From Promethearchaeota archaeon (GTDB lineage Archaea; Asgardarchaeota; Lokiarchaeia; Sigyniarchaeales; SOKP01), in NCBI GenBank assembly GCA_048940645.1, contig JBHLOI010000087.1, positions 1 through 11,321 on the forward strand: a stretch of 11,321 nt of DNA, written 5' to 3'. The position numbers and the translations under genes were made by a program. Positions within the stretch are counted from its first letter, which is position 1, and each line of letters opens with the position of its first letter. The notes under the pieces are model-generated. The model was not told the DNA's origin, did not search any database, and saw only the letters and a list, made by a program, of their open reading frames with translations. Of the stretch, positions 3,559 through 11,321 are shown piece after piece.

Positions 3559-3846
3559 ATGATGACGAAACCAACGGAGAATTATGCTAGGATAAATTTA
3601 ATTTTGTCAAAGGAAGATAAAGATAAATGGGACAAGGTTGCAGGTGATCTTCTCGGGATCAGCCTATCTCAATTAATTAGAGACTCCGTTAATGACTACA
3701 TAAGCAGAATTGAAAATTATGAACGAATAGTAAAAAAGGATAGCTTTGAAAGAGTGTTAGATGTACTAGAACCGGAAATTGACAAATTAATTCGTGAAAA
3801 AATCGATGATTACTTGAACATAAAACTAAAACAGAAAGAACGATAA
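3559..3846 (+). CDS. ribbon-helix-helix (CopG/Arc-like) DNA-binding protein
   Basis: ARINLILSKEDKDKWDKVAGDLLGISLSQLIRDSVNDYI has an alternating beta ribbon, a helix, and a G-x-S-x-S-x-LIR second helix; charged helical C-terminus. Confidence 0.8.
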   Translation: MMTKPTENYARINLILSKEDKDKWDKVAGDLLGISLSQLIRDSVNDYISRIENYERIVKKDSFERVLDVLEPEIDKLIREKIDDYLNIKLKQKER

Positions 3847-5162: not shown

Positions 5163-5187
5163 AATGACAAAAATGTGAGATTTATAT
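5163..5187 (+). promoter_or_regulatory. conserved 25-bp upstream element, copy 1 (TGACA-N4-TGTGA + TATA-like)
   Basis: AATGACAAAAATGTGAGATTTATAT, identical at 7255-7279 and 8502-8526. Confidence 0.8.
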
Positions 5188-5288: not shown

Positions 5289-5816
5289 ATGTATGATGCA
5301 GAATTTAAGATAGTTCTTTTTGGTGACCCCGAAGTAGCAAAAGCTAATTTAGCTAAGAAATTCTTGACAGATTTATTCGTCTCTGGTACAAAAATGACAA
5401 TAGGAGTCGATTTTGAAGTAAAAAGTATATTTGTAGAAGATAAGAGAGTTAAATTAAAGATATGGGATTTCAGTGGTGAAGAAAGACATAGATTTTTACT
5501 TCCTACTTATGTAAGTGGTGCAAAAGGTGGCTTATTTATGTATGATATTACAAACTACGCGTCTATTGCTCATATCGATGATTGGTTATCAATTATTAGA
5601 AAGGAAATCAGACCAGGATATGAATTTCCTATAATGGCTGTAGGGATTAAATCCGGTGTAATGAAAGATAGACAGGTTTCTGCTGAAGAAGGGATGGAAA
5701 TTGCAAGATCAAGAGGACTAGATGGCTTTATTGAATGTTCTGTTGAAACTGGGGAGAATGTTGAGGAAGTTTTTGAAGAATTGATACGATTAATGATCAA
5801 CCGTTCTTTTATTTAA
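5289..5816 (+). CDS. Rab-like small GTPase with degenerate G1/G4 motifs
   Basis: FKIVLFGDPEVAKAN (G1), TIGVDF (G2), KIWDFSGEERHR (G3), VGIKS (G4), ECSVETGENVEEVF (G5). Confidence 0.92.
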   Translation: MYDAEFKIVLFGDPEVAKANLAKKFLTDLFVSGTKMTIGVDFEVKSIFVEDKRVKLKIWDFSGEERHRFLLPTYVSGAKGGLFMYDITNYASIAHIDDWLSIIRKEIRPGYEFPIMAVGIKSGVMKDRQVSAEEGMEIARSRGLDGFIECSVETGENVEEVFEELIRLMINRSFI

Positions 5817-5913
5817 TAAAAAGAATGAGAGAAAAATTACTTCTTTTTTTCTTATTATTTGGTCTGGGTAGTTAAGCATAGCAAAGTTTAGTGCGTTATA
5901 CCGTGACATACAA

Positions 5914-5938
5914 ATTGACAATAATGTGAAATATAAAT
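5914..5938 (+). promoter_or_regulatory. degenerate copy of the 25-bp upstream element
   Basis: ATTGACAATAATGTGAAATATAAAT, 20/25 match, with TGACA and TGTGA intact, upstream of the 5972 ORF. Confidence 0.6.
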
Positions 5939-5971
5939 ATTCAACTAAATTAAGATTACTCAAAAGAAATC

Positions 5972-7222
5972 ATGAAATGGAAAAAAAAAAAGAAATTTGG
6001 AAATTTTTCATATATATATAAGCTTTTGATGCTTAATCATCAAATAAATCCGAAAACTAGCGCCACTGAGTCCAAGATAAATGAATTTATCACACTTAAA
6101 TTAGAGAACGGAAAAACATTTATCTATGTAAATGGTAAAAGGTTTCTGCAGTGTATTCGTTTAATTCTTAATATTCCGAAGAAGGATACGCAATTATATG
6201 ATGAAATCGAGTCGATAGACGAAGCTGCAGATTTGTATAACAAACGCTTATCCCAAAATAGAATAGTAACAGGTCCTATGGCACGTCCTGTACTAGATCA
6301 GACTCATGATATTACGCCTGAGGAGGAATTTTGGGGGCATTGTTCAAATATTCAAGCATGGGTGGAAAATGAGTATGATACCAGAATTTTAAAGAGTAAT
6401 ATTTCTTTTCCATTATTGAGAGAGTTAACCCAAGCTGGAGATCCCTTGGCAAGAAAGGTTTTTAAGGATGAAATTGCCTTAAGACTCGAAAGCGGGTATC
6501 CTTCAGTTGTTCAGTATCTCATTAATCAAGGTTATATCAAATACTTAACACCCTTTGAATTTAAAACTGTAATAGATACTACCAAACTTATCGAAAATAT
6601 CTCAAGGGAACCCAGAACATTAAAGAAAGCTCTTAATATCCCCGCCATATCAGGCAGGAGTTTTTTAGAAGATATACATTTAAAAGATCCTTTAAAAATA
6701 AGACAATCACTCATTAGGGACACAGTACAGACAAGTGATATATTATCTGAAAGGAAAAAGGTGCTTGAAAAGAGAAAGAGACTTAAAAAAGCCTATTATA
6801 ATGATATATTGAAACTTATTGAAGCTAAGGAATACGAGAAAGCGATCGTAGAATGTGAAGACGTTGTTAATCGCTTAATTAAAAATAAAAAGTATAAGTT
6901 AGCTGGCATATCCCTAGTAATTCTTACTCTTATGTTATTAAAACAAAATAGGGTTAATGAAATTAATAAAAAATTAGAAGATATGGAAAAAAATCTTTAT
7001 AATTTCTCTGAAACTTATGCTTCTATGTTGATTCATTACATTTTAGATATAAATAAAAGAAAGAAGAAAGAACTAAAAAAGTCAGTATCATTGATTGAAT
7101 TTTTACCATTATTTGAAGAAGAGATCAACCTTTTGTACGATTATTTAGGTAAGGGGTATGAGGGAGTTAAAAAAAAAATAATCGTGCTACGGTTATCGTG
7201 TTATGGTTACATTTTCAAATAA
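5972..7222 (+). CDS. 'FWGHCSNIQAW' domain fused to a TPR-like helical C-terminus
   Basis: aa ~35-217 are paralogous to the central part of the 8764 ORF. The C-terminus is helical-repeat-like (YNDILKLIEAKEYEKAIVECEDVVNRL...LPLFEEE). True start may be ATG 6029, since the first 19 codons look like AT-rich intergenic sequence. Confidence 0.85.
   Translation: MKWKKKKKFGNFSYIYKLLMLNHQINPKTSATESKINEFITLKLENGKTFIYVNGKRFLQCIRLILNIPKKDTQLYDEIESIDEAADLYNKRLSQNRIVTGPMARPVLDQTHDITPEEEFWGHCSNIQAWVENEYDTRILKSNISFPLLRELTQAGDPLARKVFKDEIALRLESGYPSVVQYLINQGYIKYLTPFEFKTVIDTTKLIENISREPRTLKKALNIPAISGRSFLEDIHLKDPLKIRQSLIRDTVQTSDILSERKKVLEKRKRLKKAYYNDILKLIEAKEYEKAIVECEDVVNRLIKNKKYKLAGISLVILTLMLLKQNRVNEINKKLEDMEKNLYNFSETYASMLIHYILDINKRKKKELKKSVSLIEFLPLFEEEINLLYDYLGKGYEGVKKKIIVLRLSCYGYIFK
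6074..6623 (+). repeat. direct repeat copy A (~550 bp) of 9424-9973
   Basis: Colinear without indels at offset 3350. Perfect tracts at 6254-6367 and 6587-6619. Confidence 0.9.
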
Positions 7223-7254: not shown

Positions 7255-7279
7255 AATGACAAAAATGTGAGATTTATAT
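7255..7279 (+). promoter_or_regulatory. conserved 25-bp upstream element, copy 2
   Basis: Identical to copy 1. Identity extends to 35 bp with copy 3 (7253-7287 = 8500-8534), and similarity to copy 1 continues to about 7323 (ATATC[TG]AGAAGAGGAAAAA[TA]TCGATAA). Confidence 0.8.
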
Positions 7280-7350: not shown

Positions 7351-8340
7351 ATGGTAGATTATACATTTCTCAAAGTTCTTATTTTCTGTGACAGTGTGGT
7401 AGGAAAACAAACTTTTATTAAGAAGTATTGTTCCAGCAGTTTTGGTCATAATTATAAATCAACCATAGGAGTGGATTTATTTACAACAAAGATTAAATTA
7501 AGGCAGGGAGATACCGCCAGTTTAACCTTTTGGGACATTGCAGAACAATCTTATTTTAACAGATTAATGACTCGTTATTATGAAGATGCGAATGCTGGAA
7601 TAATAATATACGATTTGACGGACGGAAATAGCTTAAATAAAATACCCGAGTGGATTCAAAAAATTAGAAAATATTCTGGTGATATTCCCCTATTATTGGT
7701 AGGAAACAAGTCAGATTTAAAAGAACTTCGAGAAGGGTCAAAAGAAAAATTAGAAAAGCTTAAAAAAAGATATGATTTGTCCTCATCTATAGAGATTTCA
7801 TTAACAACAGGTGAAAATGTGGAACAAATGTTTATGAAATTAACAGAGCTGATCTTAAACGAAGAAATTAATAATGAAAATATTAGACTAATTTTTCCTA
7901 ACGAAGAAAGAAGATTTGGGTTTTTTGATCAGAATATTGGAATTAAGCTCCAGAGTCATTCTTGGCATGATCCCTATATTTTTCTTACATTTATTAGAAA
8001 AAAACCGGATAAGTCATGGAAAAAACCCCCAAGTGGCGAGGAAAGGGTTCTCAAATTTTCATTAGAAGAGATGGTAATGATTTTGGATGTATTACGCGGG
8101 GAATCAGATTCTTGGTCTACCGTTCATAAGTTTAAAGGAGAGCGAACCATAATTAAGTTTCAGTGGGATAAGAAGGACGCTAGGAAATTATGGGTTTATA
8201 TTAATAAAGAATATAATAAATCCCCCGATATTGGCAATTACCACATCCCGTACAAATATATTAGCGTTTTTCGAATGCTTTTAGACCATATTTTGCAGCA
8301 AAAAATAGCATATGGGAACAAGCCGAAGATAATGAATTGA
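7351..8340 (+). CDS. Rab-like small GTPase fused to a putative Whirly/PC4-like C-terminal domain
   Basis: KVLIFCDSVVGKQT (G1), STIGVDL, FWDIAEQ (G3), VGNKSDL (G4), EISLTTGENVEQMF, followed by ~140 extra aa with a repeated beta-strand/helix pattern. The GTPase call is firm; the Whirly call is tentative. Confidence 0.85.
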   Translation: MVDYTFLKVLIFCDSVVGKQTFIKKYCSSSFGHNYKSTIGVDLFTTKIKLRQGDTASLTFWDIAEQSYFNRLMTRYYEDANAGIIIYDLTDGNSLNKIPEWIQKIRKYSGDIPLLLVGNKSDLKELREGSKEKLEKLKKRYDLSSSIEISLTTGENVEQMFMKLTELILNEEINNENIRLIFPNEERRFGFFDQNIGIKLQSHSWHDPYIFLTFIRKKPDKSWKKPPSGEERVLKFSLEEMVMILDVLRGESDSWSTVHKFKGERTIIKFQWDKKDARKLWVYINKEYNKSPDIGNYHIPYKYISVFRMLLDHILQQKIAYGNKPKIMN

Positions 8341-8501
8341 AAGAAAATGAAGCTTTCTTTAAAAAAACATTTTAGAATTTAATTAGACATTATTTTAGGA
8401 CTTAAAATATTGAAAAACCTTTTGAGATATTAGCTGATACTTTTTTGAAAAGACTCGGAATGAACTAGGTATGAACTTGAAAATAAATTAAAATTAATCA
8501 A

Positions 8502-8526
8502 AATGACAAAAATGTGAGATTTATAT
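8502..8526 (+). promoter_or_regulatory. conserved 25-bp upstream element, copy 3
   Basis: Identical to copies 1 and 2. Confidence 0.8.
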
Positions 8527-8655
8527 GCTTAAATGTTTTTGTTAATAATTGGGAGCGCAAAAATATCAATTGAAAAGATGTTAATAGATGGTTTATTTAA
8601 GACAGAAACGTATTAAAATTGGAACAGTAATAGTTTTAATAACCTTCTTCTAATT

Positions 8656-8763: not shown

Positions 8764-10461
8764 ATGAATTCGGAAATGAAAGAAGCAAAGTTAAGAATTG
8801 GAGTGTTGGATTCAAGTCGAAGTGGTCGTTCATTATGTTATATAGACCATAATGTTATGAAGAAATTAGGTCTAATCACAGGTAATATTATTGAAATGAG
8901 AGGGAAGAAAAAGACCGCAGGTATTGCGGTTTCCAGCATCAGTGATAAAGGAAAGGGGATAATAAGATTAGACCAGGTCCAAATGTTAAATGCTGGGGCA
9001 GATTTTGGTCATTATATTACTATTAAGCCGGCACGAGTATATCCCGCTCAGGAAATTGTTTTAACTCGTACAAAAGCTAATCTTGATATTATGAGAAACG
9101 TATTTGCTATTAAAGCAAAATTGATTGGTAAACCTCTCGTTGTTGGTGATTTCTTGGGAGCTGTCATTGTTGAAAATACAAATCCATCTGACAAAATAGT
9201 GAAAGTTACAATTGACACATTAATTAAATTAAGTAAAAAAGTCGCGCCGAAAAAGAATTTTGTTAATCCAAATTGGATAAAGCTTATAGCTGCGAAAGAG
9301 AATGTCTTTAATCCGAATTGGATAAAATTTATGGCTGCGAAAAAGAAACACGTTCATCCAGATTGGATAAAAGCCAAGATAAATGAATATAAAAAATATA
9401 AATCTCCTCCTAGGCTGGAAAAAAAAATTAATCAATATATAACCCTTAAACTGGAACATGGAAGAACTTATATTTATGTAAATGGTATAAGATTTTTGCA
9501 ATGTATCAGATTAGTGCTTGATATTCAGAAGAAGGATGTTCGACTATATGATGAAATTGAGTCGATAGATGAAGCCGCAGATTTGTATAACAAACACTTA
9601 TATCAAAATAGAATAGTAACAGGTCCTATGGCACGTCCTGTACTAGATCAGACTCATGATATTACGCCTGAGGAGGAATTTTGGGGGCATTGTTCAAATA
9701 TTCAAGCATGGGTGGAACATGGCTATGATACCAGGATTTTGAAAAGTAATGTCTCATTTCCATTATTAAGGCAATTAACCCAAGCTGGAGATCCTTTAGC
9801 AGGAAAGATTTTTAGGGAAGAAATTGCTTTAAGGCTCGAAAGTGGTTATCCATCGGTAGTTCAGTATCTCCTTAATCAAGGATATGTAAAGTATCTAACT
9901 CCTTTTGAATTTAAAACTATATTAGAGACTACTCCGCTTATCGAAAATATCTCAAGGGAACCCAGAACACTAATTAACTTTTTATCATCCTGCGCTTTAA
10001 AATTTCCCAATTTGTTTAAGGATATTTTACTGAAGATTTTAATGCTGCCTGAGGGAAGAAATAATATAGTCTCGGGCCTTTCGTTAAAATCAAAAAGACC
10101 ATATTTAAGATATAGCAACCGATTTTTAATAACTCTTTATCAGGTATTAGAAGATCTTTTAGGAGGAGTTGAATTCCAATTGAAAAAATATATAATAGAT
10201 TGTATTTCTATCACCGGAAAACTTATTGAAAAAGGGCTTCATTCACCTCCATTGCCAGATATTTATCAAAAATTTCTGATGAATGCACCTTTTAATGATC
10301 TATTACCTGAGGTATTTATGCCTTTAGAAGATAAAATAAAAAATGATAATCAAATTCTTCACAAGTTTTACAATTCACAACCGAAATGTTCATACTGTGG
10401 AAAAATAATTCCAAGGGGATTGGATACCTGCCATTGGTGCGGACATAATGTGTGGACATAA
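8764..10461 (+). CDS. fusion protein: Cdc48/VCP N-domain + NPNWIK repeats + 'FWGHCSNIQAW' domain + helical region + zinc ribbon (no AAA ATPase)
   Basis: LRIGVLDSSRSGRSLCYIDHNVMKKLGLITGNIIEMRGKKKTAGIA...KGIIRLDQVQMLNAGADFGHYITIKPA matches the Cdc48 N double-psi barrel. AQEIVL...LIGKPLVVGD...VENTNP..IVKVT.DT.I is a shortened second N subdomain. C-terminal CSYCG...CHWCG. No Walker A/B motifs. Confidence 0.88.
   Translation: MNSEMKEAKLRIGVLDSSRSGRSLCYIDHNVMKKLGLITGNIIEMRGKKKTAGIAVSSISDKGKGIIRLDQVQMLNAGADFGHYITIKPARVYPAQEIVLTRTKANLDIMRNVFAIKAKLIGKPLVVGDFLGAVIVENTNPSDKIVKVTIDTLIKLSKKVAPKKNFVNPNWIKLIAAKENVFNPNWIKFMAAKKKHVHPDWIKAKINEYKKYKSPPRLEKKINQYITLKLEHGRTYIYVNGIRFLQCIRLVLDIQKKDVRLYDEIESIDEAADLYNKHLYQNRIVTGPMARPVLDQTHDITPEEEFWGHCSNIQAWVEHGYDTRILKSNVSFPLLRQLTQAGDPLAGKIFREEIALRLESGYPSVVQYLLNQGYVKYLTPFEFKTILETTPLIENISREPRTLINFLSSCALKFPNLFKDILLKILMLPEGRNNIVSGLSLKSKRPYLRYSNRFLITLYQVLEDLLGGVEFQLKKYIIDCISITGKLIEKGLHSPPLPDIYQKFLMNAPFNDLLPEVFMPLEDKIKNDNQILHKFYNSQPKCSYCGKIIPRGLDTCHWCGHNVWT
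9244..9378 (+). repeat. three in-frame 45-bp tandem repeats
   Basis: APKKNFVNPNWIKLI / AAKENVFNPNWIKFM / AAKKKHVHPDWIKAK starting at 9244, 9289 and 9334. Confidence 0.9.
9424..9973 (+). repeat. direct repeat copy B (~550 bp) of 6074-6623
   Basis: See copy A. Perfect tracts at 9604-9717 and 9937-9969. Confidence 0.9.
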
Positions 10462-11133: not shown

Positions 11134-11321
11134 ATGACAGTTTATTGTAAAAGATGTGGGAGAGTTTTAACAGCAGCTAGTAGTATTAAATTAGGTTATG
11201 GGCCCACATGTTATAGAATTATAAAATCTCAAGAAAATCCCATTAATATTGAGGAAGAAATTAAATTCTTAAAAATAGAAATAAACATGGTAAAAAGAAT
11301 CATAAGGGAATTAAAAACTAA
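11134..11321 (+). CDS. DUF6011-like zinc-finger protein with coiled coil, truncated by window edge
   Basis: Not in ORF track. MTVYCKRCGRVLTAASSIKLGYGPTCYRII...IEEEIKFLKIEINMVKRIIRELKT. C..CGR.L....S...G.GP.C is the DUF6011 signature. Confidence 0.75.
   Translation, partial: MTVYCKRCGRVLTAASSIKLGYGPTCYRIIKSQENPINIEEEIKFLKIEINMVKRIIRELKT

Follow-up and report, generated by a model that had tools for sequence, protein, structure and literature searches.

The N-domain of Cdc48, p97 and VAT (PF02359 + PF02933) consists of two subdomains and belongs to proteins that carry D1 and D2 AAA rings. A Cdc48-N-like fold also occurs in the UT3 domain of Ufd1, where its sole role is to bind and the protein has no ATPase. 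Here, we describe a gene at positions 8764 to 10461 of contig JBHLOI010000087.1, which is a complete 11.3-kb contig (11,321 nucleotides, referred to below as the window) from a Lokiarchaeia-type (Promethearchaeia) Asgard genome. The two-subdomain fold of its N-terminal part is like that of Cdc48, p97 and VAT, whereas the D1 and D2 AAA rings are absent and unrelated domains are attached, among them a family core that we name domain X. If the protein is an adaptor, UT3 of Ufd1, the ATPase-less adaptor of eukaryotic Cdc48, is the best functional analogy. Note that the likeness extends to the fold and the likely role only, and that, as judged by phylogeny, the N-domain derives from one of the genome's own Cdc48 paralogues.

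Architecture of the protein

The open reading frame (ORF) on the forward strand runs for 565 codons without interruption and gives a protein of 565 amino acids (aa) from the ATG at 8764, or of 561 aa from the ATG at 8776. The latter is probably the conserved start codon: it is favoured because position 8764 reads GTG in the orthologue from genome G041, while the ATG at 8776 is invariant. For the related proteins P0002 and P0003, gene callers placed the start at MKEAK. From N- to C-terminus, the protein consists of a Cdc48 N-domain, a basic linker with NPNWIK repeats, domain X, a helical region and a C4 zinc ribbon:

8788..9243, forward strand: Cdc48-type N-domain, aa 9-160 (Pfam CDC48_N, TIGR01243, AlphaFold2 model)
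within 8788..9243, forward strand: double-psi barrel, about aa 9-95, and shortened Nc beta-clam, about aa 96-160
9229..9417, forward strand: basic linker, aa 156-218, with three 15-aa NPNWIK repeats (Tandem Repeats Finder, charge calculation)
9418..9963, forward strand: domain X core, aa 219-400, with the invariant EFWGHCSN motif (family alignment, model)
9964..10386, forward strand: helical C-terminal region, aa 401-541, an ARM/HEAT-like alpha-solenoid
10387..10440, forward strand: C4 zinc ribbon, CxxC-x10-CxxC, aa 542-559 (direct sequence reading)
10437..10461, forward strand: 13-bp tandem duplication with frame shift and end of the protein (tandem repeat, period 13)

No AAA family was matched by Pfam anywhere in the 565-aa protein, even at an expectation value (E) of <= 1. 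The protein is probably cytoplasmic and has no recognisable enzyme domain; because it has neither AAA ring nor ATPase, it is limited to binding. At the DNA level, the NPNWIK repeats form a tandem repeat at 9248-9372 with a period of 45 and 2.8 copies, as determined by Tandem Repeats Finder; their number is three in the window, four in P0003 and three in the G041 orthologue. The linker has a net charge of +14 over 67 residues. An interpretation of the repeats as amphipathic, membrane-binding helix was unsupported, as their hydrophobic moment of 0.2-0.3 is below the protein mean of 0.34, and the positive charge alone stands. The zinc ribbon contains the four cysteines C542-x2-C545-x10-C556-x2-C559; its scores for the Pfam families DUF7575 (18.2, cut-off 28.5) and DZR (11.9, cut-off 27.3) are both below threshold.

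Identity and origin of the N-domain

Profile and structure comparisons agree on the nature of the N-terminal part. Pfam CDC48_N matches aa 15-91 with 50.4 bits, which is above the cut-off of 35.1, and CDC48_2, representing the second subdomain (Nc beta-clam), stays with 12.9 bits below its cut-off of 22.4. In the NCBIfam profile TIGR01243 (CDC48 ATPase), aa 9-158 align to positions 3-161; the whole protein reaches 59.5 bits where the cut-off demands 802.65, and the two AAA modules of that family are missing. VAT-N was matched by sequence with an E-value of 3.5e-07. The AlphaFold2 model of aa 1-170 has a pLDDT (predicted local distance difference test) value of 88.9, and Foldseek superimposed it on p97-N (3qq8, 5glf) and VAT-N (1cz4) with E-values of about 1e-11 to 1e-12 and TM-scores of 0.73-0.78 over 165-175 columns. 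As the superposition covers about 170 columns, both subdomains of the N-domain are present. Sequence and fold place this part in the Cdc48 N-domain family, and the protein as a whole is not a Cdc48 ATPase.

Three full-length Cdc48 genes exist in the same genome. The N-domain is 67% identical to that of a 759-aa Cdc48 encoded on contig C22, versus 27-32% for the other two paralogues. The orthogroup of the C22-type protein is Asgard-wide and recognisable by about 30 extra residues inserted into the Nc subdomain; of 101 genomes searched within the family, 95 have it. A maximum-likelihood tree nests the N-domain and its P0003 orthologue inside this orthogroup with a support of 98/98. Given this position inside one own-genome Cdc48 orthogroup, the N-domain is, on the evidence of the tree, a fast-evolving copy of the head of the C22-type Cdc48, i.e. 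a recent derivative of Cdc48 rather than a relative of Ufd1. Its stem branch measures 0.86 substitutions per site, compared to <=0.07 for the full-length genes. Among 99 orthogroup-invariant positions, 70 are kept in the N-domain and 35 in a canonical paralogue. Relative to the parent paralogue, the Nc subdomain lacks about 37 residues, among them the insert of the orthogroup. The parent protein terminates in F-Y-K, which we take to be an HbYX proteasome-docking motif.

In a preliminary description of this DNA, the gene had been interpreted as a Cdc48 N-domain without ATPase, followed by repeats, domain X and a C4 ribbon. Both the architecture and the assignment of the N-terminus are borne out, the latter by the CDC48_N score and the fit of the model to p97-N and VAT-N; the phylogeny against the host's Cdc48 paralogues, which had been suggested there, led to the C22-type orthogroup. 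The comparison with Ufd1 made in the same description is appropriate for the fold and does not extend to kinship: the tree places the N-domain inside a Cdc48 orthogroup, and no Ufd1 family was among the Pfam hits at E <= 1. When set against the Ufd1 system, neither an Npl4-like nor an SHP-type partner was identified. The adaptor or decoy suggested there stays plausible; the GTPase link of domain X and the further arrangements that tie this N-domain type to it are additions of the present analysis.

The domain X family

A search with aa 205-565 yielded 2,416 cluster representatives (50% identity), 1,005 of which had E <= 1e-30. The library of representatives carries no source names; wherever a listed hit is named by source, it comes from an Asgard archaeon, and so do all of the 80 genome loci that were retrieved. 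Domain X, whose conserved core comprises aa 219-389, is a large Asgard-only family without a Pfam model. In the family search, the protein scored 833 bits against itself and 200-530 bits against other members, and all 22 invariant columns of the family alignment A1 hold in it (P0001), which is itself one row of A1. The core had no match in Pfam, NCBIfam or PDB sequences; no Pfam family was assigned to it in any of the 71 family members analyzed, and a profile comparison with PDB sequences gave nothing meaningful. The model of domain X (pLDDT 80) shows a small sheet of four strands, helices with the invariant EFWGHCSN motif and the ARM/HEAT-like solenoid. Foldseek found no PDB structure at E <= 0.001, and the half containing the beta-sheet and EFWGHCSN was barely covered; for the solenoid, structural searches returned generic helical repeats only. 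Among the entries of the ESM Atlas, only other Asgard domain X clusters were matched, and a feature search on the fold was without match. No description of domain X, or of a fusion between it and a Cdc48 N-domain, was found in the literature.

The family combines its core with changing partners. Of the 120 top-scoring hits, 46 combine the core with a membrane segment and a CBM96 (DNRLRE) ectodomain, seven with Ras and four with CDC48_N; further partners are LRR (leucine-rich repeat) arrays, TPR, a receiver domain and Ras fusions. Most members possess the zinc ribbon, and in 76 of 216 members sampled it is followed by the tail FPYPFIFKPP; in our protein the ribbon is present and this tail is missing. 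Domain X is associated with Ras-like proteins: of 80 domain X loci in species-representative genomes, 24 contain Ras in the same ORF, 31 within 1.5 kb and 39 within 5 kb, whereas in the genome under study Ras genes occur at a background of roughly one per 48 kb. A rough motif test detected the canonical combination G1+G3+G4 in one of 36 domain X-linked Ras domains versus 45 of 83 genome-wide; judged by these motifs, the linked Rab-like GTPases are mostly degenerate.

In comparison with the above arrangements of the EFWGHCSN family (receptor-like CBM96-membrane segment-domain X-zinc ribbon, Ras-domain X, domain X-LRR), aa 219-565 are typical, being 50-68% identical to hundreds of members; further shared features are the zinc ribbon and the Ras-like gene that immediately precedes. 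In contrast, a Cdc48 N-domain takes the place of the ectodomain with membrane segment or of the GTPase, the repeats are expanded, and the FPYPFIFKPP tail is lost.

The genome contains a third domain X gene on contig C85 (18564-19853, locus L004), whose core is 45% identical. For the N-terminal region of its product, about 170 aa, there was no Pfam match; a gelsolin-like character assigned by eye was dropped, as Pfam gave no hit for it.

Distribution and selection of the fusion

The same architecture was found in four assemblies: the present one; a near-identical NCBI assembly (P0002) with one residue different and unchanged gene order; a JGI metagenome contig (P0003) that is 86-88% identical, has four repeats and differs in its neighbours; and another species of the same genus (G041, locus L011) with three repeats. 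Among the 121 genomes of the order, of which 34 are in the same genus, the carriers are this genome and G041 only. The 565-codon frame is intact in the four assemblies, in a genome with a GC content of about 30%, and since the junction is identical in independent assemblies, a chimera is disfavoured.

The ratio of nonsynonymous to synonymous substitution rates (dN/dS) was determined according to Nei-Gojobori in two orthologue comparisons per segment:

N-domain: 0.33 and 0.49 (below 1, p = 0.002 and 0.035)
linker: 0.55 and 0.44
domain X: 0.19 and 0.11, significantly <1
C-terminal helical part: 0.55 and 0.54
N-domain of the parent Cdc48, same genome pair: 0.06

As dN/dS is <1 in every segment, the gene is under purifying selection. 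The preliminary description had proposed a search for the fusion in other Asgard genomes and an estimate of dN/dS; the fusion turned out not to be unique, and its evolution not to be neutral. Taken alone, the fusion is a variant of recent date and narrow distribution that is under weak constraint.

Two signs of erosion are visible in the protein, namely the Nc deletion and the 13-bp tandem duplication at 10437-10461. Located just past the ribbon, this duplication shifts the frame, ends the protein and deletes the conserved GGFFPYPFIFKPP tail of the family. It is common to P0003 and absent in the G041 orthologue, which has retained the tail. On the P0003 contig (L009, about 8470-8610), the shifted frame still encodes an intact tail, while its counterpart in the window has decayed.

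The genomic locus

The gene is preceded by a GTPase gene starting at 5289, a paralogue of domain X at 5972 and a GTPase gene with an extra domain at 7351. The features upstream are:

5289..5816, forward strand: degenerate Rab-like GTPase, first gene of the paralogous pair 5289-7222
5972..7222, forward strand: domain X paralogue without N-domain or zinc ribbon
7351..8340, forward strand: Rab-like GTPase with degenerate G1/G3 and an extra C-terminal domain, aa 184-326 (Pfam Ras, 121 bits)
8502..8526, 5163..5187 and 7255..7279, forward strand: 25-bp promoter-like element AATGACAAAAATGTGAGATTTATAT with TATA-like end (exact repeat family D2)

Both GTPases are of the degenerate type; the motifs of the second one read FCDSVVGKQ (G1) and WDIAEQ (G3). 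Its C-terminal extension (window 7900-8340) has no Pfam match and occurs as stand-alone protein in P0384/P0385, which are 66-68% identical. The element AATGACAAAAATGTGAGATTTATAT precedes each of the two GTPase genes and, at a distance of 240-260 nt, the gene studied, and no other exact copy exists in the 3.8-Mb genome. Exact copies stand upstream of orthologues at L009 169, 2094 and 6486 and at L011 709, while synonymous sites differ by 0.16-0.25. The leader of the gene studied is also conserved according to an alignment. Together, the element and the leader point to a shared regulation of this gene and the two GTPase genes, and AATGACAAAAATGTGAGATTTATAT may be the promoter and operator for a small regulon.

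Domain X of 5972-7222 is 84% identical to that of the gene studied over aa 218-400. The two genes have identical tracts of 114 bp (6254-6367 = 9604-9717) and 33 bp (6587-6619 = 9937-9969), compared to 82% identity elsewhere, and the homology stops right past the 33-bp tract. As the expected length of an identical run is about 24 bp, the 114-bp tract indicates gene conversion between the two domain X genes.

On the P0003 contig, the orthologues of both window GTPases are fused head to tail to a double-Ras protein of 390 aa (L009 265-1437, P0383), and a hydrogenase operon on the opposite strand lies between this gene and the one combining N-domain and domain X. Elsewhere in the window, a small CxxC ORF (11134-11319) matches phage families (DUF6011 type, phrog_25989, E 9e-09), and an ORF at 3559-3846 is ribbon-helix-helix-like. 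PADLOC gave no match to a known defence family.

Related proteins with a C22-type N-domain

The C22-type N-domain is linked to domain X or Ras in further proteins. P0004 and P0071 have the order domain X-Ras-like-N-domain with the N-domain at the C-terminus; P0004 contains additionally CBM96, a membrane segment and, after it, NPxLIK-type repeats. P0284 consists of Ras-N-D1. In genome G031 (contig C96, L097; 4310-7304, reverse strand), the gene for a membrane-anchored domain X protein that has both ribbon and tail lies 40 bp ahead of the gene for P0312, a protein of 475 aa made up of N-domain and a single AAA ring. Its Walker B motif has DK instead of DE and one arginine-finger position is occupied by I; P0312 is probably a hydrolysis-dead Cdc48 derivative. 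Several links between the N-domain and the domain X/Ras module are suggestive. An independent origin of the two fusion types was considered and is unsupported: in an approximately unbiased (AU) test, a single clade of fused N-domains was not rejected (p = 0.17).

Another ATPase-less protein of the same genome, encoded on contig C112 (17413-18489, reverse strand, L005), comprises about 346 aa and is built from an N-domain with insert, a coiled coil and a zinc ribbon. Its gene is divergent from an ORF of >800 aa containing a Ras domain, and G041 and G033 encode orthologues of 352 aa and 355 aa. The C112 protein and P0312 resemble the protein studied in the type of N-domain and in having no working motor; they differ in partners and neighbourhoods and contain no domain X.

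Proposed function and alternative explanations

We tentatively propose that the gene product is an adaptor, which couples ligands of the C22-type Cdc48 to the domain X/pseudo-GTPase module; this is the explanation we lean towards, and it may well prove wrong. The N-domain would fill the input slot of the domain X scaffold, a slot that sister proteins use for a membrane segment with CBM96 ectodomain, or else for a Ras-like domain. Whatever partner or partners the C22-type Cdc48 has are probably still recognised by the N-domain and would thereby become linked to the scaffold of domain X and zinc ribbon, which in turn may work with the degenerate Rab-like GTPases encoded just upstream and preceded by the same promoter element. 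The proposal builds on what was observed: the domain identities, the descent of the N-domain, purifying selection, the Ras-like genes associated with domain X and the common cis element. Three components of it we infer, namely the retention of ligands by the N-domain, the binding of GTPases by domain X and the direction of coupling. A complex prediction for the N-domain with domain X plus C-terminus and with the upstream G-domain, computed without controls, gave a score of 0.00 and a mark of 0.32 and weighs neither for nor against the proposal.

Several observations weigh against an adaptor of this kind. The loss of about 37 Nc residues, including the insert of the parent orthogroup, may have changed the binding specificity, and selection constrains the N-domain five to eight times less than that of the parent. 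The conserved C-terminal tail of the family was lost by frameshift. The fusion is restricted to two of 34 species searched in the genus, the fused N-domains may stem from a single event, and the adjacency of N-D1 and domain X was found in one of three genomes carrying the short N-D1 form.

The same protein might instead be a decoy or competitive inhibitor, whose free N-domain captures substrates or cofactors that belong to the C22-type Cdc48 and withholds them from unfolding and the proteasome, with domain X providing only localisation or regulation. This is unlikely, although it has to be reckoned with: most orthogroup-specific residues are retained, the protein has no ATPase, the parent Cdc48 ends with the presumed HbYX motif F-Y-K, and related disabled forms exist, such as P0312 with its single AAA ring and the change from DE to DK in Walker B. 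A sequestering function would have to cope with one N-domain per polypeptide versus six per Cdc48 hexamer, with the lost Nc insert and with the relaxed selection on the N-domain; the present data do not separate decoy from adaptor. The relaxed selection raises a further question, namely whether the fusion is a young and drifting domain shuffle, i.e. a tolerated recombination product of a fast-changing family, in which the N-domain has no specific role and is heading to loss. The narrow distribution, the long stem (0.86 versus <=0.07 for the parents), the dN/dS values of 0.33-0.55 in N-domain, linker and C-terminal region, the Nc deletion, the frameshift that removed the tail, and the gene conversion and change in repeat number within the locus are all in line with drift. 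We nevertheless judge it to be quite improbable, since dN/dS of the N-domain is significantly <1 both times, the frame is intact in four of four assemblies, the fold of the N-domain is predicted with high confidence, and promoter element and leader are conserved.

A different type of explanation starts from the fusions themselves: the C22-type N-domain would bind the domain X/Rab-like module, Cdc48 would act on domain X receptor complexes, and the fused N-domain would regulate the hand-off within or between molecules. Three kinds of physical link (the fusions P0001/P0003/G041, the fusions P0004/P0071 and the Ras-N-D1 protein P0284) and one operon-like pair (G031) agree with this; as these links are possibly of one origin, as the adjacency is not general and as no domain X gene lies beside the full-length C22-type Cdc48 gene in this genome, we see only a slim chance for it. 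It is hardly to be expected that the copy of the Cdc48 head is an integrated bait, placed in a GTPase-linked, receptor-like scaffold where it would detect viral or other factors attacking Cdc48, an analogy drawn from integrated decoys in plant NLR proteins. Swappable, sensor-like ends within the family (LRR arrays, CBM96 ectodomains), the fast turnover, gene conversion and disabled switch proteins at the locus, and the small phage-like ORF nearby would suit such a function; no known defence family was matched, the protein has no recognisable effector domain, and the locus shows no sign of being a defence island.

Significance

This gene presents a motor-less type of N-domain protein, a putative adaptor, that is new in being joined to an undescribed family. 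It is a natural "Rosetta stone", as the head of one Cdc48 paralogue has been joined to a large Asgard-only family, which travels with disabled GTPases. It thereby singles out concrete proteins for tests of interaction, namely the N-domain, domain X and both GTPases encoded upstream. There is a faint prospect that the Asgard Cdc48 unfoldase is coupled to a GTPase-associated, often membrane-anchored, receptor-like system with the ATPase-less fusion as regulator or bait; if true, such a system might be a forerunner of membrane-protein extraction driven by Cdc48 under the control of GTPases. Should the link prove functional, the unfolding and quality control of proteins in Asgard archaea would be tied to signalling of the GTPase type.

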